Shown here: positions 3,771 to 46,019 of the stretch, piece by piece | Layout: each line of letters begins with the position of its first letter | Numbering within the stretch: position 1 is the stretch's first letter | Assembly (NCBI GenBank): GCA_044892525.1 | Contig: CM097887.1 | Coordinates: forward strand, 87,894,397 to 87,958,396 | DNA: 64,000 bases | Reading direction: 5' to 3' | From: Schmidtea polychroa | Lineage: Eukaryota | Position numbers and translations under genes: made by a program | The notes under the pieces: generated by a model | The model's input: only the letters and a program-made list of their open reading frames with translations | Told to the model about the DNA's origin: nothing | Database searches by the model: none

Positions 3771-3992
3771 TCAATTTTTAATTAATTTATTAATTCTGAA
3801 TTTAACAAATTTTGTCATTTTTATTGATTCTTTGTACACTTCTTTAACGCCACTTTAGACCAGCCTCATTAACTGGATAACATTATATAGCTTAATTAAA
3901 TTGTGTGATTTACTTTGATCTCTAATAATTATCACATGTAAATATTTGTTAAATAGATAACATTATTAATAGTAATTATTATTTATAAGGAA

Positions 3993-5669
3993 ATGTTTGG
4001 CATTAACAAAACCGTTGATTCATTTAATCTGGAATTATCTAATGGGGGCGCTACGATGAACAATAATGATATTGAAGATAATTCATTGCATGAAAACATT
4101 ACGATTCCCCTTTTGACAAATACGACTGAACGTCAAAATCGAAGAAAGGTCACTTTGAAATTTCAGTTATTAGAACAATTATTGAAAGCCTCTTCTGTCG
4201 CTTATTTCGCCTTTGGAATTGCCGTGGCGATATCGTATTTCCTGTATGAGATGTTGCAGGATGATTCCTCCAAAAAGACTTGGAATTGGATCGGAATTGT
4301 CAATTCTATTCTTATATTTATCGTGGTAAGTTTGATTGTGATCTCGAAAATATTGATTTATAAAAATAATGAATTAATTAAATTGAACCGATCATCAACA
4401 TTGGTTATTTTTTATTGCCTCGTAGTCTTATCGGGAGCATTGTCTTGGTTCAGTTTAGTTTTTATATTGTTAAGAAATCTTTATTCCTATCCCAAATGCA
4501 CTCAAGTCGCCGATATCCTATTACCGATTACCCGATTGATGTTTCTCATGGCGGCAATTATATTAATATTAGACATTATCTATTCGAAAATAGAGAATAA
4601 TGGCGAGATTATTTTCTATTTCATTTACAAATCTGCATCGATTCTTGTGTTCGTAACTTGCGTTAACATTGCAGTGTTTGAATTCTTCCATGATATGGCG
4701 TTTTACTTTCAGAAAAACTCAGGTGGTTTATATTTCAATAGTAGTGCTTGTTCCAATACTAATAATTCAATTTATAGCAATATAATACCAACTTATTTTA
4801 ATGAATTTTCGCTCTTATTTTCAATGGTTACAATAATATTGTTAAATAAACCTTTGGAACAGTTCAATGAAAATTTCAACCCATTACCAACTGGGGACGA
4901 AAATCAACAAAACAACCCTTCAAATGATCCTCCTTCTTTAGTATCAATTAAATTTCGATCAAAGTTTAATACATTATTTATAATTTTATCGATTTTGATA
5001 TTTCTGCTTACCACATTTAATGTGCTTTTTAAAGTGATAAAGTTTAATAACGAGAAAGATAATAACGAGACAAAAAATCTGCAAATTATATATAATTTCT
5101 TGCCAGTTTCGGCATATTTCATTTGCGGATTTATCGATTTATATTTATTGAAGCAATTGCATGAGAATTTCCAATTTCAGAATCCAGCAGAATCACGTTC
5201 AACATTTATATATATGACATGGATGTGCTTATTCGGAGTGGTTTTGTGTTTGCTTCGAAATTTCATCCATTCATTGGATGGATTATCTGCGCGCGATTGC
5301 GATAGGAAATGCTATTGGATAAATATTGTTGGTTTAATTGTGGAATGGGAAAATATTTTTGAATCGATTTTGCAAGCAATGATGTTGGATTATTTATTCA
5401 GATTGAACTGGAAACATCCGATTCCAAAAGCGGCATTAAACAAAATTTATTATTGTTGTTTGATTTTAATTGCTTTTAATGTAGGTTGTTTAATTACCAA
5501 TTATATCGATGAAACTAAGAAAAATTCTATTCAAATTAGTGATAATTATCATTTTCTCAATTGGGGTATCATGAGTGTTTTAGTCTCTCCACTAATTTTA
5601 TTATATCGTGCATTTTGTCCCATTATTCTGTTGAAATTCAGTAACGAAATGGTTGCCAATGGTGATTAA
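3993..5669 (+). CDS. Otopetrin-like proton-channel family protein, divergent, intronless, 558 aa
   Basis: Uninterrupted multi-TM ORF. Family-like motifs by eye: VTCVNIAVF, PTYFNEFSLL (cf. YPFxIEYSL), FESILQ, IAFNVG, NWGIMSVLVSPLILLYR (cf. WxIIxxxxxPLxIFYRxH). Confidence 0.75.
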   Translation: MFGINKTVDSFNLELSNGGATMNNNDIEDNSLHENITIPLLTNTTERQNRRKVTLKFQLLEQLLKASSVAYFAFGIAVAISYFLYEMLQDDSSKKTWNWIGIVNSILIFIVVSLIVISKILIYKNNELIKLNRSSTLVIFYCLVVLSGALSWFSLVFILLRNLYSYPKCTQVADILLPITRLMFLMAAIILILDIIYSKIENNGEIIFYFIYKSASILVFVTCVNIAVFEFFHDMAFYFQKNSGGLYFNSSACSNTNNSIYSNIIPTYFNEFSLLFSMVTIILLNKPLEQFNENFNPLPTGDENQQNNPSNDPPSLVSIKFRSKFNTLFIILSILIFLLTTFNVLFKVIKFNNEKDNNETKNLQIIYNFLPVSAYFICGFIDLYLLKQLHENFQFQNPAESRSTFIYMTWMCLFGVVLCLLRNFIHSLDGLSARDCDRKCYWINIVGLIVEWENIFESILQAMMLDYLFRLNWKHPIPKAALNKIYYCCLILIAFNVGCLITNYIDETKKNSIQISDNYHFLNWGIMSVLVSPLILLYRAFCPIILLKFSNEMVANGD

Positions 5670-9721: not shown

Positions 9722-10912
9722 TTAAAATTGTGGTACTGGTATCGTTTCTGCATCTTTTCTATCGGATGGATAAAATGGAATTGGAGTTATCATACACAGT
9801 TTTCCACTATTGTACAAGGCAGTTATCCCTGAAGCATTTCCTTCATTTTGAAAACCCCATCGATAAAGAGGTCCTCTCATTGGTGGGAGCAAATCATGTA
9901 ACGGGTTTGTTAAATGAGATTCGTATGATTCAGACGATGTATGTGTAACAAATTTAGTGCAAAGGCTCTTACAAAAATGACTTAAACAGCACATTATAAC
10001 TCGAATGAGAAATAATATAGCTACTACAACTTGATAACAAATAGCATATATATAAAATCCCTCAGTACATACTGGAATCATTTGTGTATAGGTCTTGTTA
10101 TTCTGTATAATAATCACTTCTTTCACTTTAGGACCTTCATTACTAAACGGCAGAACGAACACATTTGGTATCCACGCAAATCCAACAGTAAACCATACAA
10201 GTGATACGCAGTAAAGAACCATTAGGACACAAGAAATAAATAGCTGCATATGATCTGAATTGCTGTCTGGGACAACAGGATTACTACTTTGAATCCAAAT
10301 CCAAGATTTAGACCATTCAAGAATTATGATAAGACTGTGAAAGCAACCGGAAACAATTAGGTAAATGTCAACTAATTCGCACGTGTTCGTAAAAACAATT
10401 CCTACAGTAATGGCTCCCAATTCAAACAATATAATAATAAAACTCAGAAAAGTTGATAATGAAAACATGAATCGGATTTTTTGGTAGTTACCATCGTATG
10501 GTCGGTTCAAAGGATTCAGAATAATAAGCTCTTCTGCATTTGACAATGGTTCAATACTTTGATTGGCAATTGTATCAGATGATATTGGGTTTAGGCTATT
10601 GCTCATATTCGAGCCCGGAAATGACAGTGCTGGTAGAGACTGCCGCAAATTTGATTGTTTTCGAAATCTAGAATTACTATTCAAAATCCTTCGTGATTTG
10701 CTTTTCTTTTGGTCAAGAAAATTGTCAGATAATTCTCCAAATGAATCGTTTACCATTTTATTGCTAAAGAAATTGTTTAAAACGTATCCGATTTTATTCT
10801 CCTGATTGTTATTCTTAAATATTTCCCCATCATTTAAACTGTTAGCGGAACGCAATTGTTTGTTTAAATCATTCCGTTTGGAAACATTTTCGGCAAAATT
10901 TACTCTTTTCAT
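9722..10912 (-). CDS. TMEM272-like 4-TM membrane protein with long low-complexity N-terminus, intronless, 396 aa
   Basis: Open 396-aa ORF with pattern GAITVGIVFTNTC..IYLIVSG / LVWFTVGFAW / C..FYIYA....CC, typical of TMEM272-like proteins (recognised by eye). Confidence 0.6.
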   Translation of the reverse strand: MKRVNFAENVSKRNDLNKQLRSANSLNDGEIFKNNNQENKIGYVLNNFFSNKMVNDSFGELSDNFLDQKKSKSRRILNSNSRFRKQSNLRQSLPALSFPGSNMSNSLNPISSDTIANQSIEPLSNAEELIILNPLNRPYDGNYQKIRFMFSLSTFLSFIIILFELGAITVGIVFTNTCELVDIYLIVSGCFHSLIIILEWSKSWIWIQSSNPVVPDSNSDHMQLFISCVLMVLYCVSLVWFTVGFAWIPNVFVLPFSNEGPKVKEVIIIQNNKTYTQMIPVCTEGFYIYAICYQVVVAILFLIRVIMCCLSHFCKSLCTKFVTHTSSESYESHLTNPLHDLLPPMRGPLYRWGFQNEGNASGITALYNSGKLCMITPIPFYPSDRKDAETIPVPQF

Positions 10913-11857
10913 CTTACATTACCTTTTTAATGGAAATTTTTTATTTAATACAATCTATTAATTATTGACAGGAAGGATTTTTAAATCAAGTCCATACTTC
11001 TAATATTCTGACTTTTAAATAAATATGATTTCTGTTCACAGTTTATGGAATACAATAATTTCAATCAAAATATAAAACAAATATAAAACAATGACACTAG
11101 AAGGGTTGAACGGTCTAAGTAAAATATTATTCGATATTGATGGAAGTTGTCAAACACCAATTTCCATAAATTTCGGGCTGAATAACTACAAATTAAAGTC
11201 TGATATAAGATTTATCTATAGAAAAATACATACCTACTTGACATATAAACAAAAATTATGAACAGAAGCATAAATTATTTGCATATACACCGCGTTGCAG
11301 ATGATAAAAACTACCTATAAAATAACAAAAATAATCAATAAAATTAAATAACAACAAAGGGTATAAATTACGATATGTTTAGCCATAAAGTACAATCTAG
11401 TATAAGACATAATTAATTTATTTCTAGAAAAAGTATGTACACCTACTTGAAATAAGGACAAAAATTATTGATACCGTCATAAATTAAATGCATTTATTAT
11501 AAAAATTGAGACAAATAATTTTGATGTAAAAAATAAAAGACAAACACAAATGCACTAAAATGATAGTGCATTAGTGTTTATTAGTGCATTAAATGTTGGG
11601 CAAAAGTTGATGTTAAAAATTCTGTGTTTATGACTAATTGTGATATCATCATTGAATAGCAAACCATTGAGAAAATTGTTTATACGTTTTTCTTGATTCA
11701 GTTACTAGATTATCATATTTACCTAGTATTTATACAAATTTTGGCCAATAAAGTGACCATTCGTTCCGGATCCTCTAGGATAGTGTCGGATTTTGGTAAC
11801 ATTGTAAGCGAACATTATTTTGCATTAGATGCAGTCTTCGTATTCGTGTATCGACAA

Positions 11858-12089: not shown

Positions 12090-13659
12090 TTAAAATACAA
12101 AATTATGAATTAATGATTATTAAAGGGAAAGGAAAAACAGCGAAACTGTCGCCTACGAATTTAAGGGGCTTCGAAATCGTTCTAAGAAAAATGATTATAT
12201 TTCGAAAATTCTTTTACATTTTGCCATAGGGCATTGGAATTGTTTGGCTAGAACTGATTTCTAGACCCAAAACTCTAATTTGTGACTGGAATGCGTAGGT
12301 ACATAACATGCAAAAAGCAAAAAGTATAGTTAAATATTAAAAACTACACCAAGTAAACAATATTAATTAAAAGAGAAAACAACAAAAAATATAAACACAG
12401 AAATTAAATAAAATTATATAAATGCAAGAAGTTATGCAAAATCGAACTCAAAAAAACCAAATAAACATAGAGTTACAAAAAAAACAGACTCGAATAACTT
12501 AAAAGACGGTAAAAACAGTAAAAATTCCAGAAAATCCCAGAACATTCCATAAAAATGGCGATAACCATCATAAAAGCCATATAGAGCAATAAAAGTTAGA
12601 AAAATAAATAAATTAGTAATAAAAATAAAACATCTTATAAAGAAATGCAGAAAACATCAGTTGAAATAAAAAATTAAATCAAAATTAACATGGAATGTTC
12701 TGGAACCGTTCCAAATCCATCATGGACGTAAAATTAACAAGAAATAATTAAAAAATAAAAATTTAAGAATAAAAACAAAAATTATGGTACTAAAATCGCC
12801 ATTAAAAATACCAAAATTACAAAATAGAAAATTCTGGAATAAAAAGAATTCGAGTTTGTTTTAATGCATCAACACATACACGTGTACTTGCACACACAAA
12901 ACTAGGTATATATACCGACACGTTTCAGTCACAATTAATCACTTTTATGCCAAATTTTTGTCAAGTAGTTTCAGAAATCGATAGTGAGTATTGATTTTTT
13001 ATTTTATTTATGTATTACGACTAATTGACTAATTATATTGATGATGTTTAAAAATTATTTTATTTTTTTAAATTTCGTGTGATGTATAAATGATCAGCGG
13101 CGTACTGGAGTACCTGCGCCTCTGGTCAGTCTTGCATTCAACTAATTTAAAAACCTTTTATGATAACATGCAGACAGGCATTATCTATATCATATGTTTC
13201 TTTTTGTTCGGGTCTTTCGGAGGTCGAACCGCTTCATGGTCCTGCCATGGAGTTAAGTCGATGAAACCCTTCGTCTGACTCTTCCTATTTATTAGAGGTC
13301 AGCCGTAAATAGTTGACTTACTACACAACATTAAGGTTTGTCTTAGTGGTCCCAGTGGGGCTGCGAAAACAAAAACTCTTCCCGACTTAATACGCAATAC
13401 ACAGTTAAAATCACCATTAAAAATCATTGACAATAGCTCTACACTAAGGTCATAACTTGAGTAGAACTCAGACCCAAACTTATACAATTCTACAATTCAG
13501 TAATGTGGTCGGTTGAATAGTAATAAAAATTTCAGTTATGCTTATACATTTGTCGAATTTGGATTTTTATAATAATGAAAAATAGAACTTTATTTGTAAT
13601 TAAAGTGATTGAAATGATAAAGATATTCGACATACGTATAGGTAGGACTTAATCTTTAA

Positions 13660-14543
13660 ATTGAGTAGGTCGTTAAACTAATTATAAGTATAATAAGCTC
13701 AATCTAAATATTAATATCATGAATTTAACTTCCCAATTATAAATTACGAATCTGTAGTGGTCAAAGCTCCCAGTCTAAAATATTTGTATAAATGATAAGT
13801 CATAAATGTATAATTACTTCGACCAAAAAAATATAACCTACAAGCAGTTATGAATAAAGGTTAACTATGAACATGTAGGCTGTAGATAGTAGTATATAAA
13901 GTTTGATTATAAAACATAAATAATACCTAGTTATATATAAAGTATATATATATATCTATTCATTCTAAGAAGATAGTCTATTAATCGTTATAGATAAATT
14001 TTAAGCCCAAAAATATAGATTATAAATAGTGGTATACAAATTTTGATTGTAAAATACAACTTATAACTAGTCATATATAAACTATATATGTATGGTAAGT
14101 CTGAAAATATAACTTACAAATGGTTGCGGATAAATTTTTACCATCATAAATAATTAGGAAACAATGTTGGTTATAAAAAGGTAATTTATAAAAAGTTATA
14201 TAAAATTGACTATAAAAATATAAATTATGAAATATAAAATTGTAAATTATAATTAGTTATATATAAAATGTTTATGAATATAAACTATAAATAATTATAA
14301 GTTTTAACTGTAAAAGTAGGGAATATATAATAATTAGAGGTAAATTGGTATTATAAAATATAATTTATAAATAGGTATAAATACAAATTATAAATAGTTA
14401 TAATTAATATTTAACTATAAATATATAAAATGCAAATAGCTATAATAGCTTGCCTTTAGGTATGCGACGTTAAAATTAGAAATATAAAAATTTTTTTTTG
14501 TTAAAATTATAAATTATAAATTGAAAATAATTATATTTCTTAT
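13660..14543. repeat. Extremely AT-rich quasi-periodic low-complexity tract abutting the gap
   Basis: Recurrent TATAA/ATAAATT/TAACTATA words, almost no C or G, ending at the N-run. Confidence 0.7.
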
Positions 14544-14799
14544 NNNNNNNNNNNNNNNNNNNNNNNNNNNNNNNNNNNNNNNNNNNNNNNNNNNNNNNNN
14601 NNNNNNNNNNNNNNNNNNNNNNNNNNNNNNNNNNNNNNNNNNNNNNNNNNNNNNNNNNNNNNNNNNNNNNNNNNNNNNNNNNNNNNNNNNNNNNNNNNNN
14701 NNNNNNNNNNNNNNNNNNNNNNNNNNNNNNNNNNNNNNNNNNNNNNNNNNNNNNNNNNNNNNNNNNNNNNNNNNNNNNNNNNNNNNNNNNNNNNNNNNN
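14544..14799. other. Assembly gap (256 N)
   Basis: Run of N. Confidence 1.
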
Positions 14800-15804
14800 A
14801 TTGTCATGATCACCATTATTATTATTACTAATACCATCATTATCCCTATTAATATGTTGTATTTACAAAAATAAAAATCGAAATCAAATATTGATTTAGA
14901 ATTTTCCCCCAAAGTTAAATTTAGTACCAACCCCTTTGATCCAATAGAAACGATGAAAATTCTTAACATCTATTTTTAGTAACACCCCCCCTGGAGAAAT
15001 GTTGGGACTATCTAAGTTAATTGGAGATAGGGGTGGAAGTACAGTATCGAAGTATATAAAATACTCCTCTAAATTATTAAGGAATGGCAAACATATAATT
15101 TATTCAATAGAAAATTAAATTCCTTTTACCGAAAAACAAAAGATAATTTGTCATTATTCCAATAATTGATCGGTATCAATACCAAAACGGAATTGCCAAC
15201 CAGGAACCGCATGACGATCCCTAAAATTTGAACCTCTACATCTCCTGCCAGAAGGAATTGTTATTAAACGTCTCAAATAAAAATGTAATATAAATAAATA
15301 AATTACCAAAGTCATAAAAGTCGGTTGTACCACTTATAACGAGTACAACCGGGGGAAGAGTAAGTGAACAATAACTGAGCTTGCCACTAATACCCATCGC
15401 CTGATGTACCCGCATTCAGTGGTAATTACTCCAATTTTCCGGAAATATCTATAAAAATTAAGCTGTAAAATTTTAAATTACCAACTAGTGGTAAAAATAG
15501 TCATTTAAAACAAAAATGACCTTTAGGAAATTGTCGTTCAGGATATAGAATTCCTAGCGTTAATACTCAATGTTGTTAAAATTCTTCTTTAATTTATTAA
15601 TTAAAAGGGTAAGCTAGCTAATTTAAAATTGGAATTTTAAGTTAAAATTGTTTGTATTAATTATAGTAAATTTGATAATTAAATTACGACTTATTTTAAG
15701 TATGAAAATTTTGTATATTTTTATCATCGCTTCATTTCATAAGTCACACTGAACTTAAGATACATCTCCGTTTGTACAAGTGTTTTGATTTTTACATTGC
15801 AGGA

Positions 15805-16170
15805 ATGTCTCAATCCGATGATTTTAGCGAAGGGGAAGCCGATCGGCAAATGGTTACCCGGCTCCGTACCCGGTATATTTGGTACCGCATCCACGATTGG
15901 AATCGTGGATTGGACCTCGATAACTTCGGCCCAGTTATCCGAAGTGGCCCGGAACCTGATGCCCCGGCGTGGGTAAAAACGGAGCCAGCCAACAACTTAT
16001 TACAGGAGGCCCGCGATCTAGCGGCCAGTGACGTAGAGGCCGCTCAAGTTCGGCTCAAGAAACTTGAAATACAGATCAGGGCCAAAAGAGAGGGAGTGTC
16101 CCTGGAGGAGCTGGAGGAGGCCGAGGCACCCCCACGAAAGAGAGGGAGGCCCCGCAAGTGCCAAATGTGA
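15805..16170 (+). CDS. Repeat-family ORF-a (copy A): 121-aa protein with coiled coil and C-terminal AT-hook
   Basis: ATG 2 nt after the acceptor ttttacattgcAG (15801-15802). Motif RLRTRYIWYRIHDW is shared with 48541-48600. C-terminal RKRGRPRK. Confidence 0.6.
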   Translation: MSQSDDFSEGEADRQMVTRLRTRYIWYRIHDWNRGLDLDNFGPVIRSGPEPDAPAWVKTEPANNLLQEARDLAASDVEAAQVRLKKLEIQIRAKREGVSLEELEEAEAPPRKRGRPRKCQM

Positions 16171-16427
16171 TCTCTCGCCGACCCACGCACTCATATGACA
16201 ATCGACTTAATTTAATTAACTTTTGTTTATTGTTTATGTATTAATTTAAATAATTGAAATTGCCTAGTGTTCGTTATTAAATAAAGTATTTTTTTTATCA
16301 AGTTGTAGGTTTAGCGGTTATAATAAGGCTTAGTGATAAAGTACTACCGTTAATTAATAATTTGATTACTTGTTTGTTTCAACTCTTTTTGGTATGAATG
16401 CAATTAATAAACTCCTTTATGTTTTAG

Positions 16428-16885
16428 TGTACAAACTATTGGAAAACCTGCGTAGAGACCGAGAACAGGCGCAAAAACAAGCCGACGAACTCCGAGTCTG
16501 GGTTGATAAACTCAAAGGGAAGTGCCGGGAGTTCGAGGGCACCTGGTTTAGTCCCGCGGATCAGATCCTCCAGCTGCAGACCCAAGCCGCACAAGATCAG
16601 ATGGAGATTCGCGCACTAAAATTACAGGTGCGCGCGCTCGAAACCGAGGGCAATGAGCAATTCGTTCACGAAGCCGTGGCAAGACAAATCCGGCCGCTGA
16701 CTGTAGAACTGGCCGCGATATACCCTCCAGCCGCTGAAAATAGACCCAAGCGAAAGCGGCTAGGACGGAACATTAGGGAAAAGTTAAAGAAGGCCAGGTT
16801 GGCCGAATATGAACGTCAGGCGAATTCTTCAACATCGCATGCGTCTGCGACGGGACTAACCAGCTCTGCCAACGAGCCAATTTGA
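16428..16885 (+). CDS. Repeat-family ORF-b exon (copy A): coiled coil, EGTWFSP motif, basic tail
   Basis: Open frame after the acceptor gttttAG (16426-16427). Homologous by eye to 24614-25372 and 49214-49652. Confidence 0.6.
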
Positions 16886-17004
16886 ATTGTTTTTTTTTGT
16901 TGATGTATATTTTTGTAGTGTATTAAAATAGTATACGAGATATTTTGTTATATGATTGCCTGAGGAATGAAAATTTGCGCGTAAGGTTTTGGGAAAACAA
17001 TTTC

Positions 17005-17230
17005 GGTAAGGGACCTGAGGAAATCGGACACAAACCTTCTAACGGTAGTCCGTGGACCCATAGAGTACTCGACAATTATAGTGCCTTAGTGCGCTCAACT
17101 TTTGCGAGTACTCAACCCCTTGGTACAGTACCAACGTTGATTACTCAACGGGTATCAAGCGGAAAACAATATTGTATTTTGGGTTACGCTGGTAACAGCA
17201 CTTAAACACTCGACCACCAGTAACCCACCA
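17005..17230 (+). repeat. Conserved structured terminal motif, copy A
   Basis: About 70% similar by eye to 49765-49998. TGGGTTAC (17180-17187) pairs with GTAACCCA (17220-17227), enclosing a GCTG-GTAA-CAGC hairpin. Upstream GTTGA-TTAC-TCAAC hairpin. Confidence 0.8.
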
Positions 17231-20200
17231 GAATTTACAACTATATTCTTTATCAAATAATCAGTATTATCAAATTAGTGATATAAAATAACGGCGGTCT
17301 ATGGAGGTTTGGCTTGGCCCTGGTCATGTTCCTTCTTGCCCTAAAATATGCACATGATCCTGCCCTCCGGTTCATTACCTAATCGCATTTTTCCTACCCC
17401 TCTTATTTGTTGACAGTCATTGTTCGTTTGGAAAATGTTTAACTAATCAGTGATGGAGTTTCGTAGTGTTTAGCTTGGTGACTTGTCGATTTCAATTTTT
17501 AATAATCATGTCATGTCCTCATTAGAATAATTTTATATTTTTATTAATGGCCGAAAATGAAGAGAAACGTGTCACCTGCAATTCGCCATAATCAAGGATT
17601 CTCCAATTACTCGAACTCAAACTTTAATCTTGATCAGACTAGATTCTTAAAATGTGACCCAATAAACGGTCGCTACAGTGTATGTTTAGTTACAAATTAA
17701 ATCTGTATATTTGTATACGCATTATTTATTTGGACATTAATGGTTCCCGATTACAATCATTTGAAGACCTTGAAGAAGCTCTGCAAAAAGGGGTCTCCCT
17801 CAGTGTATTGTTGATCCTCCCATTTTCCGCATAGTCAATGATTAGATCATTACCTTTTCTGCTTGTCATATTTTACTCTCACCGCCTACTCTGATAGGCA
17901 CATTTCTCGGTTTAAGTGACTTGTACCGAGTCACCACTTTGCATCCTTCTCCTTGCTCCCCTGTTTACGCCCATGGTTGTGGATTGATGTGGTATGCAAA
18001 TTCTTTATCCTTACATTACTTGACTTTAAATAAAATTTCTTGTGGATATTTTGAAAAATGCAAACAAATTAAATTGTTTTTAATATTTGTATTCAATTAT
18101 AGACGCTATAAATACTAAAAGTATAACAACAAAGACCAACCATGAAATCTCCAATGAATGACAAATTCAAGTAATATACCGTATCAAATGTACTTTATAA
18201 TATAAATTTAGTGATAAACAATCCTTGATAATATTATTTGAGAGCAATGAAGAGAAATATTTAACTTTATTCCACTATTTAAATATATTACATTTATGTA
18301 TAAAGATTAGGAAAACAAATTGTAGGTATTTTTCTTCAGTAAAACACTTTCAAATTGATACATTTTCAAAGAGTATTTATTTCCCATGTCAATTTAACAA
18401 TGATATAAAAAATCCAAATCCTTTATAAGCTATTTCTTGAGAATCTCGTATTCATCCATGAAATTGATTAAGTATTTTTTATCTTCGTTTTCAGGAACAA
18501 AACTTGTGTTAATTATTGTTATATCGTCTACACTGTATTTTCTGTCCCATTACCAAATCCATAAAGTTAATTCCTGCAATTTCCTGCATTTCCTGTTTCT
18601 AAGGGATGTTGTTCAGCATTTTCATTCATTCTTTCAATCTATAACTGTTGGGCAAGAACCCATTAATTCCGAAATTATTTGAAAGAACCGATAACATAAC
18701 GTGTATCTCAATAAGTTTTTCAAAATCTAATCAAAAAATTTCAAGTAATATGGCACTTAGTTAATTAATAATATATAAAACACAAGTAAATAAAATCATA
18801 AACGCGACAAAAGCAACATTTTCTAAAAACATTAGAAAATTGAATAAAATTAAATAAAACTATCAAAAAAAAACAAGTTTGCTGAAATAGTTTGAAAAAG
18901 AATTATTAAAGAAATTATTTAGTAAAATGGAAAAGATCAAAAGAAAATGATAAACAACCGATCGAAAATTAAAATTTAAAAGAATGAAATTAGTAATTAG
19001 AAATCAGGACACGCGTAAGTGAATTCAACTTGATTGGCTAATGAGACACTGACACTGTATTACTGTATACCGAGTTGTAGCATACCAAATAAAAATGTGC
19101 TGGGTCAGAAAGCCGATAGTTAATAAATTAATTAAGTAAGTAATAGAAATTAAGAAAAAACTGTTAGAGCAATCCACATAGCAGGAAAATCGCAAGAAGT
19201 CGATAAAAAATCATATTAAAAATACCAAATAAAAACAAAATAAATGTTGAGAAAAATCTGAATTTAAGCAGACGTAATAGTAACGTAAAGGGAATGTGTT
19301 GGATAATAGCATACAGACTCAGCATTAAGTAGAGTTAAAACATCAAGTAAACAAAATTAAAAAGAACTCACGTCACATCAAAAAGATAAACACAAAAGTA
19401 AAGAAAAATTAAAACAAAAGCAAGAAGTATTACACGAAACAAACTGAAACATAGCATAGACACAACAGAAGTAAACAAATTTGAAAAAATGGCGATAAAG
19501 GAAAATCGGAATGGAAATGGAAAAGATTTCCACAAAATATCATCAGAAAATAAATTAAGAGTCAAAATTATAACAGAAATGTTAAGAAATATGAAAATGG
19601 CGAAATCCATAATGACGGCCAAATAACTTGTTGAAGTTAAGTAAAATATAAAAGCTAGGAATTAATTACCAAAAACCAAAAAAAGAATAAAATAAGAATT
19701 AAAAGAAATAGGAATTAGTTAATAAAACTATTAAATTAGCACAGGATATTCTAAAAAGGGTCATATCATAATGGCGGCAAAATTATTTATAAATAAAATA
19801 TAGAAACTAGAAAAAAAATTAATCGTAAATTAAATTTTTAAGAGTAAAAATAATAATTTTTGTTTGTATTATGTTATAAGTTAATTAAACGATAGTGTCA
19901 GAGATTTTAATTTTTCTGTGTGTTTTTAAAACGAAACCATTTTTGATGACTAAAATCGTTAATCCTTTTTCGATCCTTAGCCACCACACCAAGCTGCAAC
20001 TCAGCAAAATCAAGACACATTCTAACTTACGAGGAGAGAAGCAGTTCTACTGCACCCCTTATCAGACAATTTCTTGTGCCTAATGTGGATATTTACATTC
20101 TTTCCGAGAAAGCAGTACCTTTTTTTTGTTGGGTTAGCGGAATACTCCTTCCAGGACAGCCAATTCATCACCAGCTCAATTTCTCTTCGGAACATCTACT

Positions 20201-22149
20201 TCTTCACCGAATTAACTAATTGACTTTGATAACTGTCCAACTTTTGAAGATATCTCAATCGCAAAAGATCATTTTTGTCGCTGGACAGTGATCCCCGTTT
20301 CTCTTCGGCATCCACATACAAAACGTACATCCCAAGAACATTTGAGAATGCATCAAACCTTTACGTCCGGAACATTTCAAATTCAAGCCTGCCTAGATAT
20401 TCATGAAGCTATATATAAGCTAATCGAAATCAAAGATAACAATGCTAAAGTTATCATTAATGACTCAATGCCTCTTTAACCTATGCCATTTGGAACCAGA
20501 CTTTTTGCTTGACGACACATCCTTCTTTGATGATTGTCGTACTCCGGAAAACAAATTTCCTGAAACCGAGAACTCATACATTGAAGAACCATTACTTCCC
20601 ATCGAAGATAACTGTATAGCTTATTCCTCTTTTGATACAACTACTGAGACCCCAAATACAACTGCTGAGAATGCGGAACCACCCACAGTAAAGATCATCC
20701 AAAAGGACGGCATTTAATACTCGGCAAATTATAAAAAGGAAAATGATTATTAATTTCATGATCATGAGTCAATCATCATGGAGACGGTTGCCAATGTAGA
20801 CTTGGCTTAACTCGAAGTATAATTGATTTGCACACCACAGGAGTGTAGTAAATTTAAGTTCAATCTGTGTACATCGGTAGAAAATGATTGATAAGCACAC
20901 CAGTACACAAGGTGCTAAGAAACAAGACTAACGTATGGGGGAGTTCGGTACAAAGTAACAAACACAAACATCTGGCTTAGCTAAGTTATAAGTCCACGCG
21001 TGCTTCAGAGATATTAAAAAAAGTGTGACTAATAATATGTATACGTATGAGTGTAATGGACATGAAAAGAATGATGGACAGCCCTTACAACAGACATGTA
21101 TGGTATTTGGACTAAAAGTATATACTTTATGAATTTAATAAATTATTGAAATATTTATACTTATATTTTCGTTTACCGCTGAGGAACAATAAGTGAATGG
21201 AAATATTGATGGGCTTGACACAGAGTAGATAGATGATGATACGTAACATGGGAATGAATGGGTTATGAGATAGGCAGTAAGCTAGTGCATCAATTTTATC
21301 GGCGTACAAAAGCTGGCTCAAAATTTCCTTTCTAACCGGTATACTTCATCTGATTTTGTGTTTTCCGTAACATGCTTCATTCACTAACCTAGTCTATGTA
21401 AGGGCTTATGGATATTGTTCTACTTATGTTTTGGATAAAATATAAATCAGGATCAATAGGTGACGAGGGAATGTCAGTCCTGAGCGCATGTAGGCCTATG
21501 AAGGGTTGTTAAAAACGTCTTAAGAGAGTGGGAGTGGTGATGAATGTGTCTTATGAAGATATGATTATAACATGGGTATCTGAAATTCACACAGTAAAGG
21601 AAATCAAAAAACCGAGGGGAGCAAAATCTGGATCGACCACCACAATTGGAAAACAACCAGGATTAGAAGCTGAAATCAAAGCTACAGTATGAAGTTGTAA
21701 AACAGACCAATGGATCAGTGGCAGTCAATCAGACAAACGGAGGATCGGACCTGCATCATGGTGGTGTTAAAACGATAACACATCTTAAATAAAGCGTTTA
21801 TGGTTTGCAGTCAAGCCCTCCAGGAGATTCGCATTACCATTGACAAATTATAGCGAAATGACGAAGATATCCGACAAGGCGTCATCCCCAGTACCGATGG
21901 GTAGTGCTAACAGTTTGATGATGATGAATTAATGGAGGACATGATCCACTATTGACACCAGGAGCTTAAATTTCCCGAATTGGTGTCGAGGAAACGCACT
22001 GAGTCCAGCGAAGACGTAACAGACTGTGACAGCAGATCGGGCCGCTTGCCCCAGGGTGTTTGGGCAGTGAATGTGGAACATCTGATATTAATAAATTACT
22101 TATTCAATACTTCTATTGCGAAATAGTAGAAGTGTTGGGCTGAGTCGAA

Positions 22150-22750
22150 AGCATAATCGTCAAATTTAGGACAGATAAGACGCGAACAAATAAAATAAGA
22201 CCACAAATTGCTAAAATAAATAAATCAAGAGACAAAAGAAACAATAACGTAAAATATTAAGATTAAAACAAAAAATAAAAAATAGAAAAATTAAAATAAG
22301 GTAATAAGATAAGGAATAAAATGACGAAAAATGCAACAAATAATGAGGAATTTAAGAAACAAATAAAAAATATATTAAAATAAAGAAAAATAAGGAAAAA
22401 CAACCAAAGAAATAAGAAAAACAAATTAATTTAAAAGTTAAAGCGGTACTCAATTTTGATTGGTCCGCATAAACAAAAAATTCCTATATAAGCAAACAGC
22501 AAATTCAATATAGTTACTGTTTAACAACCACCATTACAGGTAAGCTCATAATTTAAAAACTACTGTTTAACAACCACCATTACAGATCAACACTCAACCA
22601 TTACAGACGATCACCGACGTACAACCTAAACGACTATCAGGGACAATTAGATTTTCAACTCAGTACAATAACCGAATTCAGCTTTTCGACTCAGCTTTTC
22701 GAGATCACAGATCGATAAAGAATAAAGTAAGGATGTATTCTTATTATGAA
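22150..22750 (+). mobile_element. LTR-like promoter segment
   Basis: A-rich run, TATATAAG near 22486, duplicated 25-mer tactgtttaacaaccaccattacag (22515 and 22561), donor CAG|GTAAGC at 22540, AATAAA near 22722. Confidence 0.45.
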
Positions 22751-24613
22751 TTCGAGTAAATGTTTCTCATGGAAGTTAATAGTAATAATGTTTATTATCA
22801 CAATTTTAATAAAATTTTAATGTTCTCTCCATTTGGTCTCATATTTTAATAATCAAGTATTTTCAATAATGAAATTTAAAACCTTTTATGATAGATAACT
22901 ATGCATGATGATTTCGATTTTTATGGAATTTATATGAAAATTATGGTTGAGTAACGTGGAGTTGAGGAGACCTGTACCATGGTGTGAGGAGCCTTCGGGA
23001 GCTCAGCCGGTGGGTACAGACTTCTTCAATCACGCAGCTGACGTGGGCCGGAAAGTGGGGGCTTCCTCACGGGTCCATCGCTGAGGGAATTAAAATGTTG
23101 CAAGAATTAGCTGACAATAACATAGAATACCATTCGGATTGGAAGATGAGGACGATCTTAAAAACCATGACTGAGGTGGCTACAAACGTTTATTTTTCAA
23201 AACCCATCATTCTTAGCTGTTACATCTTGAATTCTTTACCTAATACCCGTAATCAGTCTGAATCGCCTAAGTGTGCCAATCGACATTCCATCTTCTGAGT
23301 ACCAAACCCATTTCTGTTGAAATGCACGTCAATTTCCGTCTGACCTGTAGAAACTGAGTACCAACCCATTCGTCGACGCTATACAATCACATGAGAAGTA
23401 TAGATGAAATTTATGGAGCACAATAAGAAAATGTATTACGAAACTGTTTTATTTTTAATCAAATTATTTCGAAGTGTTCTGAAAATTACACTCACAGTAG
23501 GATAAACTCCCTTCAGTAAAGGACACCTCCGATTGACCTTGTCAAATTGCAGATTTTTCGAATAAGTCGAAGGAAATGTCCACGAAATAAAGTTATCCAA
23601 GTAGAAAACACAATTAACTGCACATCGCGGGGAACAAATCCAACATTAGCGTTTGATGAGAGAGCAACCTAGATGACATATTGATTCCACGAATTGATTC
23701 GACCCAGTGGTGTATTGCGATCATCTGCGAACGATAATTCCGATAATGACCAAACATACGAGATAAATCACACGCACTAACACACTAGTACTTACTCACA
23801 TATGCGACCTGCAGTATTTTCCCAGTCAGCTACAAGTATTGAGAACCGAAATTAAAACACGCACAGACAACAGGGCTGGCTCGGATAGATAGCAGGCCGC
23901 CTGTCTCATGCTTCCATTATCTGGCATGACGAACTATTTTTCATGAGATTAATCTTATTACAGGCGTTTCCCGACATATAGCTAATTTCATCGTAGATTA
24001 AAATTTTGACTTGCAGAATGGTAATTCCGAACATTAATAATAGATAACGGCCAGGTGATTGGTGCATATTCCAAACAATTTGGTATTAAACGGGGACCCA
24101 GCAGCTATTGAGTGGAGATTAATTTTACCTGCGCATCCGCTTGCCGAGGTGGGAATTCTGAGTTATGTCCTGGGGGAATAATGCGTTGGTTAAGGGGGAA
24201 ATCGGAAGGCGTTAACAGTAAAATTTTGTTTTCTGCGTTTGGTCTATTTCCAAAGATATTATTAGAAGGAATTATTAGTTATCGGCTCAATTTCGTTGTC
24301 CATTTTGTGTACAAGGAGGTTGGGCATCCCCGCATCTAATTAATTACGAATTTGTTTTTGTTGTTTTTCCATTACACCAAGGGAAAGGGGGTCACGGCTT
24401 ACAACTCGACCGGTAGATGACATTCGAATTTAATAATAATAACTCAGAGATTTTCTTCACCCGTTAGCATAAATCCCTTCCTCTTAATATATTAGGACCA
24501 CATCAAAATTAATGTATAGCTTGTAGGAAAATTCATAGATGATTAGGCCACCAGGCTGGTTTAATAGACATAGCGAATCTTGTATTTTACCCTTATTGTT
24601 TCTTTCATTATAG

Positions 24614-25372
24614 CCATTGAGAATGTTACCAAGCTCGAAGTCGTCTCTCAAACCCTGCTTCTCATGCTCAGATAAGAATTCTATAATCAGAGATTTGCAA
24701 GCCCAGATCGGTCGATACAAGAAAGCGATCGACCATCTGGAAGGTACATGGTTCAGCCCAGTACAAATGAAGGAGGTACAAAAGAAATTGTACCGAAGCG
24801 AGCACTGTCGCGACGCCTTAATAAGCGAGAGTAGGGCCCAACGCAGTCTTATCAAAGAGCAGTCCGAGGCTCTACACGAGGTCTACGTACAAGCGGCAGC
24901 AACTAGAAAGATAGTGAGTATACCTATCAATGGAGCGGACGACCTTTTCCCCGTCCATCATGAACTTCCTTCCAATTCGTCATCTTCGGCTAAGAAGCCC
25001 TGCCGGGAATGCGTGGAAGCCGATCTCTCTCCCCGGTCAACCATAGTGTCTCCCATTGGAGCCCAGAAAGGGATATCATCGACCGCGTCTTCCTCTGTCG
25101 TACTATCAAACACCCTGATTGTTCCAAAACCCAAGCGTCGACAGTTGTCCAGAGCTGAGCGTAAAAAGCGTCAGCGCGAACGAGCAATCGCCAAACAAAG
25201 TGGACTATCTGCCGAGCTCTCCAGTACTTCGAACGATCCCCCTGTAACGATCGATTTAACCGTAGGGATCCCAGGGCGAATCATCTCCGCCGCTGGTGTA
25301 ACTTGGGAGGAGAATGCCTCCGAATTCTTCGAGCTGGAGGAGCTGTTAGCCGACGCAGAATGGGAAAAGTAA
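24614..25372 (+). CDS. Repeat-family ORF-b (copy B), about 250 aa, intact
   Basis: Acceptor ttcattatAG at 24612-24613. LEGTWFSP motif, coiled coil and Arg-rich KRRQLSRAERKKRQRER. AATAAA near 25510. Confidence 0.6.
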   Translation, partial: PLRMLPSSKSSLKPCFSCSDKNSIIRDLQAQIGRYKKAIDHLEGTWFSPVQMKEVQKKLYRSEHCRDALISESRAQRSLIKEQSEALHEVYVQAAATRKIVSIPINGADDLFPVHHELPSNSSSSAKKPCRECVEADLSPRSTIVSPIGAQKGISSTASSSVVLSNTLIVPKPKRRQLSRAERKKRQRERAIAKQSGLSAELSSTSNDPPVTIDLTVGIPGRIISAAGVTWEENASEFFELEELLADAEWEK

Positions 25373-26269
25373 AGATCTCAATCCAATGCAACTACATCGA
25401 TCATGTTTAGTAAATTGAACGATTCTGACTTATATGTTCTCGTAAACCGTCTTCCCTTGATTTATATTAGTCCTGTAGTTTTAACTGTATAGCGTACTAT
25501 GATAGTAGAATAAAGAAATTTTCGTCATTTCTTATTGTTAGTTTTTGTTTGATTAGCCATTATAAAGGTTCAGAGTAGTTTTTACAACCCAAGCGCAAAC
25601 TTTAGTTCGAAAAGCATTAGACAATCTGTATATAACTCGGTGTCAGGTAGGGAAGGAAATGGTGGAGTGATCAGACGTAAGCCCTTCCATCGGCAGTCAG
25701 AAAAAGGAAGTCGATGCCTCAGTAAGGAGTAGTCCTAAGGTAGGGGCTCACCTGCTTACTGGTGTCTCGCCGGCATAGCACATTTCCAACGTGGAGCAAT
25801 TCACGGGTGCTATGTTGGAGTACAAGTTGTGCGGGGTCTTGCTCCGGATTGACGTAAGCACACTTAGCGTAAATGAATGGACACTCATCTCCTAGACAGG
25901 TGCGTAAATGAGTTAAGGTCAATCAAGCACTACCCCAGCAGAAGAAACAACTGATTTAGATTTCCATTAATAACTGAGGTTTGATGACAAACAGGTATAG
26001 TGTAAAACTGAGCTTAGGTATGATGACACTTATGATAGACTTACGTATAATTTTAGAAGAACAGCATTTGCACGCACTACGCCTGGAGCTACAACAATTA
26101 CGAACGGTAAGGCTGCTTCAATGTGGATGCGGGGAAAGAAACGCCCAGGATACGGCATGTCAATAGAACTTTTTGCAGAATGTTGTGATTTAAAATTAAA
26201 TCTTAGTACAATTGTTTTTATGATTTCCTAATCATTATAAAGAAAACAATTAATAAACATGGGGCCTAA

Positions 26270-26420
26270 AGCTAAGTCGAACGTATGCCTACTAACGGGT
26301 GTCTAGAAATACACACAAGTGTTTGTCGACTATAGTGTACAAAGGTACACTCACTTTTCGCAAGTACTCACTGAAAACAGCAAGAAAGGGTAAAATGTGG
26401 ATTTCCTCTAACCCACTGTT
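26270..26420 (+). repeat. Structured terminal motif, copy B (partly deleted)
   Basis: ctgaaaacagcaagaaagggtaaaatgtgg...taacccac is nearly identical to the reverse complement of 46425-46470. Confidence 0.65.
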
Positions 26421-30439: not shown

Positions 30440-30620
30440 CACTCTGATTTCGACTGTGTGTTTTTTAAATTCAGCTCTATTTTCATTGACTTTTTAATCA
30501 ATTCATCAAAGTCATTAAAATCGACATAATACAGAGCCTTTTAATTTTTTCTTTACTTCCGCCAAAAACTGGTCCTGTAATAACTCTTTTACTTGCCCCT
30601 GTGATGGGATTCATCTTTTT
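30440..30620 (-). mobile_element. Ty3/gypsy gag relic
   Basis: Minus strand VKELLQDQFLAEVKKK (frameshift) ALYYVDFNDFDELIKKSMKIE, matching gag L.DQFL.G....K / F.E.V..A..IE. Confidence 0.5.
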
Positions 30621-30725
30621 CTGACGGCCATCCACTAAATTGCAGCACCAATGTCCTTATCGGCGGTCATTTAACGGTCTATTAAATAGTTACGGAGGGA
30701 AACGGGTGGAATCGAAAGTATTGAC

Positions 30726-31343
30726 GGGTTAAGTTGAAAATAGGCACGAAGTGCTTTCTACTTGTAACCCACCCTTTCCATTTACATTGACGAATGTTAA
30801 TGACTTGTTATATTCGATGAATCTGTTTGTATATTGACGACGCGGTGAAAATGGTTACTGTTTGAATGGATTGTGATAAGTTATGTTTCCGGTTATGACA
30901 ATGAGTAAATAAGTGTGTGTAGTATATCGAGGATAGAGGTTTGTGGAACCACAATGACTTCATTTAGTTAGTGACAGGACATTCGAAATGGTTGAGAATT
31001 ATCACATGCAAGTGTTTTTGATGAGTCCAAATTAATAGAAATACGGAAAGAAATGAACTAAGTCAGAGACGAACTAAGTCACAGACCTTGTTTAGTCTTT
31101 CGCGAGTCCATGATCTGAGTAATCAGATTTTGAGATTATCAAACTCACGTGATAATCTTATTACCGAAAATCGTACATGGCGATTGTTGATAAATGAACA
31201 AAGACGAGTGCTGATTAAGGCCTAAACCAATCCATAGCTGTAACGACAAGTATACAAATAGCGAAAGCCTAGCGTGTATGAGTCCTTCGGTATCATGGTT
31301 TAGCAACAAGAACCCCTAATGGTAGATCGAATATAAAATTACA
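30726..31343. mobile_element. Compact terminal motif (copy E) plus putative LTR of about 580 bp
   Basis: GGGTTA-agttgaaaatagg-CACGAA..tctact-TGTAACCCACC parallels copies C and D. TGTAAC (30763) to ATTACA (31343) gives TG..CA ends. Confidence 0.45.
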
Positions 31344-34463: not shown

Positions 34464-37400
34464 TATTTTTGTGACTGGACCTGTTTACTCTATCAACTGC
34501 TATATCCGTACAGTATTACGCAGTTATACACCCGTTTGCACTGAATAAACGCATCTATAATATGGGTTGGTATGAACAACCAATTATAGAAATTTAATTA
34601 TGTTAATTTATTGATTTATTTATTAGCTACAAAAACTCAAAGCTATTTTAACTATTTGTATTTAGCCATTTTAGAAATTGCTTTCAAGTAATTTTTTTTT
34701 ATTAAAAGTAAACTTTTAAGGCTTGAATATTGATCCATATAGATATGAAATCATTATTCAAGCTCTTAAATAATACTTTTTATCAACATTTTTTATTATA
34801 AATTATTTTTAATTAATTTTTCACGAGTTTTCGATGTTATTGTTATTATTTGGAATTATTTCAATGTTTTATTATTTCATTAAATACAATTTATTAATCG
34901 CCAAAAATATCAATTTTTTACAACATTTAGGGGAAACGGTAGATGTGTTGAAAATAGTATTTTAAATTTTTATATTCGTCTTTTTTTCAGTTTGTCAAGT
35001 TCTGAAATTCTATAGAAATATTAATTTTTAAATTTAAGTTAATAAAATTTGAGATGACCTGCAAATCAATCAATTCAATCAAAAAGTTTAAATAATTATT
35101 TTGATTATATTATTCAAAATTTATTATTATAAAATGGTCATTATTATAAAACCGGCTTGGTATGCAACGTTCTAAAATGGCTTGGTAAATGGCGGGTTAA
35201 ATGCTTTTATTCATTGCAACGATAAAAATCAACACATAGGTAAGTTTGTATGTTTATAAACACATACACATTTTTTGTTTTATATTATAGGTGCGTTTAT
35301 TGAGTGCAAACGGGAGTATGTAAGAACATCTCGACGCTAATAAAGCCAGTGTGTCTGACATGACCAATCTAGGTAACTAACGAACGGCTTCTAAAACTCA
35401 AGGAAAAACTTGCTCCGTATCTTGTGTATATGCATAAATTACGAGCACAAAGCTATGTAAATTAACAGGCCTCAATCTCTACAAGCTTAAATTGATAAAG
35501 TCGCAGTCTAAATCTAATGTACAAAATATTATTAAATATCTAAATAGATATATTATATAATGCCATATTTTAACCATTGGCAATTTATAGTTCACATATG
35601 CTTGGTCCATAATATAATTATTTAGAATCAATAAAACAAAAAAAATGATAGAAATAACAATATAAAATTTAAATTAAATGTTTTCATTAAAATTAATATA
35701 AGTTACAGAATTGAATATGATTCACTCATCTGAATCATGTGATCTCTAAAAATTAATTTATAAGATATCTTAAACAAGAGCAAGACAACAAAAACTTATT
35801 TAATTGTTATATTTTTGTTATATACCAACAAAACAAGAAGGTTGAAAGGGAAAATAAGAAAGGATATATTGACATATTTTTTAAAAATACTTTTCGGTCT
35901 CCTAACATGAAATTAGAATCTACTATTTCTATATCTATTGATAACAAAGAATATACTGGGAATCTTATGTATTAAATAATTTTGAAAAATGTTTATTTGA
36001 CGCTTTTAATGAATTTGATAAATTATAGGAGACATCGGAGCAACGTTAAGAACTTAATAAAACAAAATAACTTTTTAAAGTATATTATATATAAAATATA
36101 TTTTATATTTTACCAAAACGAATAAATTAATTATGCAGCTAATATACAATTTTCCAATCCATCAGGTGATTTTCGATTATATACATATTGCCATTGTAAT
36201 TCAATAAAAACAAACTCAATAAATTTATTGTTTCAGTGTGGATTATGGATAAGAAAAATTTTAATAATGCTAAAATTATTGATATGCATCAATGACATCG
36301 AACAAAATTTTCAAAATATTAAACTTAGAACAATCCAATATTTATAACAAAAATTTATTATTTTAGAAACCTTCATCAATCAAAATTTAATAAATATCAA
36401 ACTTATTTTATTTAAAATTCCTTTTTTTAATAAAATATTTTAATTTAATTATTATGACTGCATTTAATTAAATTTCATGACAAATTATTTTAATTTATAA
36501 TTTATAAATTTATATTTGCTTTATCAATTCAATGTTATATGATTTGTTAAGCCATATAAATTTGAATAAATGCATTGATTTTAAAAATTAAATATATTAC
36601 AATAATTTTCAATAACATTTTTTCAATATTTATTATTTCATTTATTAAATTCGCTTAATAAATTGAAAAGTAAAATTCGCCATTTTACTTTTTTCAGAAA
36701 ACATTTATTTTGAAAAGTTAGACACTTATAATTAATTAAGAATAACAAAATTAATCAAACTTTAATAATCATAATATACTAACATTCTTTCCAGTTATAA
36801 GAAACATATATTCATGCAATAACAAAATAAACTCACATGGACAATAATATTTCTTAAAAAATGAAATATAAATTATTATGTAATAACAATAAAAAATTAC
36901 TATACTTCAAAGATCTTGCTTCGCGTTTATTAAGAATACAAATTTATAGTTCAAATATTAAACAATAACTTATAAATTGCTATTTAATAGGATAAATTAA
37001 ATAAGTTTTCCATTTTAAAATTTAAAAATATATATAATAATTTTCTATGTTTATTTAACATTTTTTAACTTCATCAAAATGCACAATTCAGTCCATCCGT
37101 CAACTTAGTTATGCGACATTAATTAAAACTTCATTAAAGTTTTTTGCAAATTTAATAAGTAACACATTCAAATAAAAAAAACAATTTAATAAAATTTATC
37201 GAAATTGGAAAATGTAACTAAATTATGTAAATTTTGCCATATATTTTTTAGCAAATAATTATTTCGCAGAAAAATTAAAAAAAATTATATTAATCCATAA
37301 AAGAGTAAATAATAAAAATATTAATACATTTATTATTTCGATAATATAAAACTAATAACGAAATTCGTTATCTAACAGTGATTTAAATAAGTACAAAATA

Positions 37401-42756: not shown

Positions 42757-43829
42757 AGACTGTTTATTTCGAAAAGTAAATACACGTGAACGATTCAAAC
42801 AACCATATAAATTTTATTTAATTATTTTTTTAAATTTTGGAATTAATTAATTTTCAATTATAATTTTTTATGAAATATTTGTTATATAGTTTTCCTTAAT
42901 TTTTCTAAACCTAAATTAAGATAATTTTGTTATGGAATCATCAAGCTACTGAAAAATAAATTTCCATTGTATTTTAATTTCTTTTAATTCATAAGTCATT
43001 GATTAATAAAAAGATTAATAAGCCTAATTAGAAAAGACATGCAATTAAGAAGAAAACAAAGGTACTGAACAAAATAGGGTACTGTATTTGTTCTAGGGTC
43101 TTATTGATCTCTTGAGGATCTTATCAATCGAATGCCTATGGTGAGATGAAAAGAAAAGATATCAGTTACTCAAGGCACCAATATGACTATTGAATCTAAC
43201 ACCTGTGTATCCATGGTGACAGCCCATGTTGGTGCTGTACACAGTGGCTGGATGTGAGAGGGAAGCCGAGCTCCACTGCAGAAATTACTACTCACTTGCT
43301 GCTTTCGATTATTAAATTGTTCCGCCTTCTGACCAATCTTATAATTTTCTTTTCTACCTCTTTGACTCCAGAACGAACCACATCGCCTCCAGCCTATTGA
43401 TCTGGGTATTAAACTTGCCCTTTTGGGCCTTCAATTGAGACCATTTTTATATTGGCGATACATGATTATTATCTAAATAATGACCATATGCAACACTCTC
43501 ATTGAGGCCTATCCAAGTTTTTTTGTGGTCATTTTTACTCAACCCTTGTCAGGCCAATTGTTTACAATTTGTAGTAAAAATATTTTAAAATTCAATTGCT
43601 CTACTGAACTTTGATAAAAATCAATTTCCTTCTACCTACATTTTCGTATTGGATTGACTAATGAGAAAATGTGTTTGTCGTTTGACTATTATATTCACAT
43701 AGGAAAGTTGAATGTTTACATACTCAACTGCTCAAGTGACTACAATTCGTAGTTTATATACCTATGTGCTATTATTAATTTTTTTAAATTTATTATGAAG
43801 ACATATGACAAGGTAAATACATAAAACTA

Positions 43830-45495: not shown

Positions 45496-45960
45496 TTAAC
45501 AATTATACAAATTTCCGTGATTACTCAGAACTTTACACAGTCGCAATCTTATTGATGCATAGAAATCCAAAATTTTATGTCGCCTGGTACAGTTGATAAG
45601 AGATATTACATCCGTAATTTCTTTTTCTAAAACAGCTATGTTTAAGAACTGCGGTCCGTCATAAACCATATCTGAAATCATCTTCCAGACATCCTCAACT
45701 ATATTCAAGTCTGGACTTCGTGACGGCCATGTAATCGTTGATATATTACTTGATTTCAGATAATCTTGGACAATCCGTGCTTTGTGTACTGTGCAATTGT
45801 CTTGCTGGAAGTAAAAATTCCTCTTTAGGTTAACTTTCATTATTGGCACAGCAAAGGTCTTCAACAGGGTAATGTAATCGGTCGACTTAAATTTGCCAGT
45901 TATCATGTGGAAAGATAGAAGTCCGTTAGGAAGGATCATCAGCCAGACCATAATTCCATA
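45496..45960 (-). mobile_element. Tc1 (DD34E) transposase, 5'-truncated
   Basis: FQQDNCTVH ... WPSRSPDLNIVEDVW with 34 residues between D and E. Confidence 0.9.
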
Positions 45961-46019
45961 TAAGAAGATCGAAAATTGAGCCAAGATTTTTGGTTTGCTC
46001 GGGTTGGGCAAAAACTGAC

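Follow-up and report, generated by a model that had tools for sequence, protein, structure and literature searches.

We examined a 64,000-nucleotide stretch of the Schmidtea polychroa genome, referred to below as the window, in which a sequence-only reading had picked out a recurring stem-loop. The first copy, copy A, was found at the 3' end of a solo LTR, and the features of this LTR and of the fold within it are as follows.

12241-17230, + strand: solo LTR of a Burro-type giant Ty3/gypsy element (family 1), 4,990 bp with TG..CA ends
15805-16170, + strand: LTR-borne ORF1, 121 aa with a basic C-terminus; Pfam gives nothing better than E 0.023
16361-16885, + strand: LTR-borne ORF2 frame, 174 aa stop to stop with a basic C-terminus, without a Pfam match
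17010-17015, + strand: conserved GGGACC, which would either complement the variable region of tRNA-Pro or pair with CCC at 17057-17059
17025-17059, + strand: hairpin H1 with a near-invariant UUCUA loop, followed by G(A/G)A, the predicted pseudoknot partner
17063-17113, + strand: hairpin H2 with an internal loop and a conserved CUCAC on its 3' side
17120-17162, + strand: hairpin H3 with a conserved 8-nt bulge facing one G
17172-17230, + strand: terminal domain, comprising TTGTAT, the outer stem, the GNRA hairpin and the att end CCACCA
17180-17187/17220-17227, + strand: outer stem, whose 3' strand is the integrase att end
17188-17199, + strand: GNRA hairpin

Copy A was identified as a solo LTR because both of its ends could be mapped together with a 4-bp target duplication, GAAT, at 12237-12240 and 17231-17234. 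As a DNA query, copy A gave 3,165 first-look candidates in the genome, of which 40 were scored, and in 30 fetched loci the homology extended far upstream and broke off at CCACCA. A 5' end of TGTTGG, about 5 kb upstream, was common to the family-1 LTRs (20 longer stretches), which end in TG...CA with short, imperfect terminal inverted repeats. Exact 4-bp target duplications were noted for 11 of the 14 elements with both ends mapped; the other three comprised one with a single mismatch, one 5' LTR and one without a duplication. It is near certain that the stem-loop is the 3' end of the LTR in Burro-type giant Ty3/gypsy elements. The core 22-mer had 1,842 exact matches in the 781-Mb genome, compared to 0 for the reversed control, and when up to two mismatches were allowed it occurred three times in the window and never in 100 shuffles. 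Penelope, Helitron and non-LTR readings of the repeat were dropped after the mapping of both ends and the duplications.

The LTRs carry some further features of their own. A splice-acceptor-like AG lies just 5' of ORF1 (15805-16170), and LTR-borne ORFs in three regions of the window (15805-16885, 24614-25372 and 48529-49652) have short motifs common across families, basic C-termini and splice-acceptor-like sites before them, with no Pfam family. It was also noted that a short inverted repeat at the family-1 LTR start (12244-12272 in the window) could form a hairpin; it was not evident in the first 45 nt of the X-family LTRs introduced below.

Further LTR ends were located elsewhere in the window.

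22133-25940, + strand: solo LTR of the related family X3, target duplication GAAG
26277-26416, + strand: copy B, an old family-1 end that retains H1 and H2 and has lost H3 and the 5' strand of the outer stem by deletion
30611-30774, + strand: copy E, a decayed end of a more distant LTR family, hairpin absent
43175-43303, - strand: part of an LTR end of family X1, weakly matched by the model (E 0.001)
46423-46538, - strand: copy D, a decayed fragment of which about 115 nt are kept, with the top of H3 and the terminal domain
49767-49998, + strand: copy C, a family-1 LTR end with the complete fold and the third helix, last bases altered

The sequence-only reading had listed five copies of the stem-loop, A to E. 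Three of them carry the outer stem and the GCTG-GWAA-CAGC hairpin as described (A at 17180-17227, C at 49945-49998 and D at 46426-46479 on the - strand), and the upstream hairpins named for A and C were both found, the GTTGA-TTAC-TCAAC hairpin being the top of H3. Copy B is a deleted member, matched by our covariance model at 26277-26400 (E 4e-13). Copy E had to be discarded as a hairpin carrier: the hairpin is absent, the covariance model gives no match, and likeness to a divergent LTR end is limited to 30611-30679 (75% over 69 nt). The X3 solo LTR had been overlooked; it holds the same core fold at 25671-25817 (E 3e-12) with a different terminal stem. Within the window, the copies are unremarkable solo LTRs or fragments that lack a primer site, and they would therefore be inert as replication signals.

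Other sequences in the window included host gene exons with quinolinate phosphoribosyltransferase domains (40371-42588, - strand), single-exon hydrophobic ORFs of 570 aa (3957-5669, + strand) and 398 aa (9722-10918, - strand) without a convincing Pfam match, and a hairpin at 34712-34772 that scored 54.7 bits against Rfam mir-753, under the gathering score of 62. Decayed RT-like frames that resemble Penelope by eye, with no Pfam match, were observed along with two DDE_3 transposase fragments (60250-61104; 45496-46020; 61227-61580).

The replicating form of the element was sought beyond the window. A spacer and a primer site followed 7 of 30 unselected family-1 ends, with a shared internal region beyond them. 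The spacer measures 7-8 nt (8 nt in family 1) and separates the LTR from a tRNA-Pro primer-binding site in which 18-23 nt are complementary to the genome's tRNA-Pro(TGG) plus CCA; the 17-mer of this site occurs exactly 1,077 times in the genome. Among 70 primer sites examined, 24 belonged to family 1, 45 to four further families (X1, X2, X3a and X3b) and one to a rearranged singleton. One full-length family-1 copy has LTRs of 5.17 kb that are 99.8% identical, about 36 kb between its outer LTR ends, and a 23-nt perfect match to tRNA-Pro plus CCA. Its domains comprise gag with zinc knuckles, MATH, a mononegaviral fusion domain, PR, RT, RNase H, integrase, ankyrin, TRAF and BIR-RING. The LTR direct repeats flank gag, PR, RT, RNase H and integrase in Ty3/gypsy order, and env lies in frame between gag and pol, with MATH, BIR and ankyrin as cargo.

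The X families have shorter LTRs, 1.6-4.2 kb in length. RT, integrase and ankyrin were detected in single copies of X2, X3a and X3b, and the fusion domain in those of X2 and X3b. One young X1 copy (G000:C1:5728800-5744400, about 15.5 kb) has LTRs that are 99.9% identical and keeps the fold; it contains no recognisable gag or pol, its sole internal ORF (877 aa) having no Pfam match. No gag-pol was found in two more X1 copies, partly read on the + strand only. X1, the second most frequent group among the sampled primer sites (22 distinct of 70), is probably a non-autonomous family.

In one account of Drosophila and mouse elements, the gap between LTR and primer site is given as 0-5 bp (PMC2790888). 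Our first-guess patterns failed because the spacer is 7-8 nt long and a purine tract is absent: a TGG primer site 0-4 nt past the LTR returned 29 unrelated flanks, and a purine run before the LTR returned 16 loci without a common internal end. With so long a spacer (for example L136:5339-5346), integrase or RT would need to remove a long extension.

We then assessed whether the fold is maintained as RNA. The family-1 set comprised 45 ends with intact motifs and less than 93% identity, together with extra primer-site copies. In this set the 67-pair model was 93.6% paired compared to 30-38% in slid controls, and 19 of the 67 pairs were changed on both sides compared to 12.7 +/- 1.9 in shuffles (0/500). 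The double changes are located in the upper H1 stem, H2, H3 and an optional third terminal helix. A covariance model of H1-H3, built on 32 family-1 sequences alone, recovered all 23 given loci of the four other families (E <= 1.1e-6). In a cross-family alignment of 28 rows, with identities of 38-59% (mean 51%), 32 of 39 pairs were changed on both sides and 93.8% were paired compared to 71% in shuffles, in an alignment that was fitted to the model and so leans toward it, and whose cells are sequences and not events. In the lower stem of H2, all 12 pairs were changed on both sides across families.

In 22 primer-site-bearing family-1 copies, G.U outnumbered A.C by 51 to 7 cells, and the remaining rows held 63 G.U and 35 A.C, a pattern that fits an RNA of the + strand under selection and with subsequent decay. 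We judge selection on RNA pairing to be very probable. RNAalifold recovered H1-H3 and the GNRA hairpin on family 1; the outer stem was not recovered, its 5' strand being paired elsewhere. Folding z-scores were modest (-2.3 on the + strand and -1.6 on the - strand for copy A) and near 0 for several X copies.

The selected structure claimed by the sequence-only reading is therefore upheld by the upstream hairpins and not by the helices that it had cited, which are near-invariant. Among 161 ends, one compensatory change was seen in the outer stem and none in the GNRA hairpin, and neither showed any in the 45-end set. The outer stem and the hairpin are invariant and prove nothing alone, and the att sequence also lies within them. 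The GNRA loop is kept in 153 of the 161 ends, but this motif itself anchored the search. The intervening arm, described as freely varying, forms a third helix in about a third of these ends (GGTA/TACC in 46 and GGTG/CACC in 6), which is lost in A-type subfamilies. The G.U pair in the outer stem of copy D had been taken as a sign of pair-keeping; it is uninformative, as the outer stems of 122 ends without a primer site hold 12 G.U and 12 A.C cells, and it looks like neutral decay.

In full-length copies, the TTGTAT of the terminal domain is predicted to pair with the spacer beyond the LTR. This closing helix was predicted in 8 of 8 representatives of the five families, stopping 0-3 nt before the primer site, with a predicted 3' strand that in every family passes through the att end and continues into the spacer. 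Sequence similarity among the five terminal domains is low, and the spacer of family 1 differs from those of the X families, with the helix partner changing to match. The LTR-spacer pairing is possible only in the 5' leader of the full-length RNA, the spacer being absent from solo LTRs.

These observations bear on the alternative that the symmetry lies at the DNA level, as integrase att sites and protein-binding inverted repeats inherited by descent. The LTR does have imperfect terminal inverted repeats, the att end coincides with the 3' strand of the outer stem, a strand that does not covary, and a short inverted repeat is also present at the U3 end of family 1. Against this stand the G.U over A.C bias on the + strand and the covariation, across families, of helices with asymmetric bulges. 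Because the predicted pairing extends to the spacer, outside the LTR and missing from solo LTRs, a DNA inverted repeat cannot explain the terminal helix. The stem-loop did prove to be a known kind of LTR terminus, namely the Burro-type end, but for these reasons simple DNA inverted repeats do not account for it. We regard DNA-level symmetry as improbable as a whole, and for H1-H3 it is already disfavoured.

The UUCUA loop of H1 has a 5-bp partner just downstream in 15 of 16 X rows, where the only variation is between A and G opposite U. In family 1 the partner is 3 bp long and occurs in 13 of 13 rows. Of the control windows, 10% gave 5 bp and 43% at least 3 bp. Within family 1 the pairing amounts to 3 bp only, with no double change. 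The predicted pseudoknot at H1 is likely, with its support coming from the X families.

Several features would suit a new self-cleaving ribozyme, as implied by the sequence-only reading, that would process element transcripts: the fold is compact and built of several helices, its loops are invariant, it likely holds a pseudoknot, and the short stem and 7-nt loop of H1 resemble HDV P3/L3. However, Rfam 15 gave no relevant family on either strand: the window matched only two microRNA families, both below the gathering score, eight further loci matched none, and no ribozyme family appeared at E <= 1 in either set. The conserved columns lack a hammerhead core, the helix order is unlike HDV nesting, and conservation does not extend to the CTGAGGA of copy A. 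Cleavage anywhere from the cap to the primer site would also, we infer, sever the strong-stop template. A ribozyme is thus very improbable. Two patterns searched in prokaryote-centred collections gave no match.

The remaining question is the role of the domain, which we approached by position and analogy, the predicted fold being read from sequence. On this basis we lean slightly toward a U5-IR-like leader domain that would aid the start of minus-strand reverse transcription. The element RNA would fold the 3' end of the LTR into a leader domain directly 5' of the tRNA-Pro primer site. The terminal helix would pair the putative U5 with the 7-8-nt spacer and end 0-3 nt before the primer site. 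It would hold the reverse transcriptase in place at the 3' end of the tRNA, and its sequence would double as the integrase att end. H1-H3 may offer a recognition site for RT or nucleocapsid, and possibly also for the T arm of the tRNA once freed. AATAAA was found 287-398 nt before the primer site in 9 of 12 family-1 loci and 418-438 nt before it in 2 of 2 X3 loci, and was absent in the X1 and X2 loci examined. One run, presumed to be RNA, showed depth in the first 550 nt of the LTR and A-rich loose ends near a genomic A-rich tract, a pattern from which we draw no transcript ends.

Several sequence matches to tRNA-Pro bear on the last of these contacts. G(A/G)ACCC after H1 complements the tRNA-Pro T arm, and in family 1, X1 and X2 the match is GAACCC plus one flanking base (7 nt). 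GG(G)ACC complements the variable region, which adjoins the T arm. The GAACCC match is missing in X3a and X3b and thus present in 3 of 5 families, and a blind shuffle test of tRNA complementarity over all conserved words gave p values of 0.73 and 0.40. We treat a putative primer-activation contact with the T arm, suggested by these complements, as a lead. The T-arm pattern has 1,577 matches across the genome, and a tandem array of tRNA-Pro(TGG) genes with a 475-bp period was observed at G000:C1:130.90-130.95 Mb.

A further question is whether the element end could itself imitate a tRNA: the terminal stem plus ACCA would mimic an acceptor stem and either undergo processing or serve as a primer. 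The 7-bp stem, the unpaired A and the CCA exactly at the element end suit this idea. However, the CCA belongs to the att inverted repeat, and in other families the element terminates in CCAACA and has a different stem. In the predicted RNA both the last A and the spacer are base-paired, and beyond them comes a conventional tRNA-Pro site. ARAGORN found nothing, and tRNA mimicry was rejected, there being no T arm and no cloverleaf with a free CCA. We consider it extremely improbable.

The main rival to the initiation reading is that H1-H3 serve as a packaging or dimerisation signal, or as the site of an element-encoded basic protein (TAR- or RRE-like), so that only the terminal helix would act in priming. 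Proximity to the primer site fits both initiation and packaging. The invariant unpaired loop and bulge motifs resemble protein sites, small basic proteins are encoded in the LTR, and the X1 copy without gag-pol retains the fold, as expected of a signal for packaging in trans. However, H1-H3 have no conserved palindromic loop, the loops of H2 and H3 vary, and the packaging signals of Ty3 are described as spread over the UTRs and POL (PMC11381356). Packaging or protein binding is, in our estimate, doubtful.

The initiation reading concerns the 5' leader, and the other end of the element was examined as well. The 45 nt that precede the 3' LTR contain, in each of the five families, a perfect 7-bp palindrome around a GGN loop, followed by GGGYCCC and then 8-11 nt to the 3' LTR (for example L139:1088-1132). 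No polypurine tract was found before the 3' LTR in any of the five families, and the longest purine run within 60 nt was 3-6 nt at 30 of 30 loci, which had been picked by their GGGYCCC-type motif. At these loci TGTTGG stood at the expected place in 28 and the exact palindrome was present in 27. The 16-mer pattern of the 3'-end motif had 1,151 genomic matches, compared to 0 for the control. The best predicted leader duplex of GGGYCCC fell on the primer-site region in 4 of 4 families tested (-19 to -25 kcal/mol, predicted), with the att inverted repeat contributing part of the pairing.

Polypurine-tract priming is presented as general for retroviruses and LTR retrotransposons in PMC3185511, where the named deviation is one pyrimidine. 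An absent polypurine tract that is kept in about 1,150 copies thus touches a step described as general. We tentatively suggest an undescribed pair of signals, in which a pseudoknotted U5 domain would engage tRNA-Pro, the palindrome and GGGYCCC would replace the polypurine tract, and pairing at the primer site would couple the two ends; on present evidence this is doubtful. If true, these LTR elements would integrate and yet prime their plus strand with no polypurine tract, for example through nascent-DNA fold-back or a structure-protected primer.

Planarian Burro/GYPSM1 elements exceed 30 kb, with an internal region of about 25 kb and thousands of copies, and carry retrotrans_gag with CCHC, MATH, a mononegaviral-type env between gag and pol, ankyrin and BIR (PMC6431247). 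The length, domain set and domain order of our elements match theirs, a likeness drawn from the description and not from the Burro1-4 sequences. Section 7 of that paper does not mention LTR RNA structure, the primer tRNA or a polypurine tract, and the papers that our searches returned on planarian LTRs and Burro gave no account of the fold or of an absent purine tract; the extended data of Grohme 2018 and Repbase may describe the primer site or the 3' motif. The element family is already known, and the structured RNA within it is probably undescribed. With five families at about 50% identity, it offers a naturally occurring data set in which covariation of a large leader domain can be followed in animal elements that carry env.

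The tRNA-annealing signals of Ty1, Ty3 and HIV-1 are placed in a structured 5' end in PMC11381356, and stems that pair an LTR with LTR-adjacent sequence are discussed in PMC3601003. The primer activation signal of HIV-1 is described as an upstream motif that contacts the 5' T arm of the primer tRNA (PMC11251516). A candidate counterpart here is the upstream T-arm complement (7 nt, in family 1, X1 and X2); unlike the HIV-1 signal, it is split in two with the order swapped, is absent in X3a and X3b, and overlaps the predicted pseudoknot. For Ty1, a 5' pseudoknot near the primer site and a CYC5/CYC3 cyclisation are reported in PMC3592414. A pseudoknot near the primer site and a 3'-end motif pairing near it, both predicted here, are traits in common with Ty1, which differs from our elements in superfamily and in position.

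Cis-acting RNA structures of LTR elements have been mapped mainly for retroviruses and yeast Ty1/Ty3. Work by Miller in 1997 and by Lin and Levin in 1998 is said to have described a U5-IR stem in Rous sarcoma virus and a similar structure in Tf1. As in these systems, the stem predicted here sits at the U5 end and adjoins the primer site. Unlike theirs, the helix predicted here takes in the 7-8-nt spacer and lies at the base of a branched domain of 60-125 nt, and a further conserved domain of 140 nt lies upstream.
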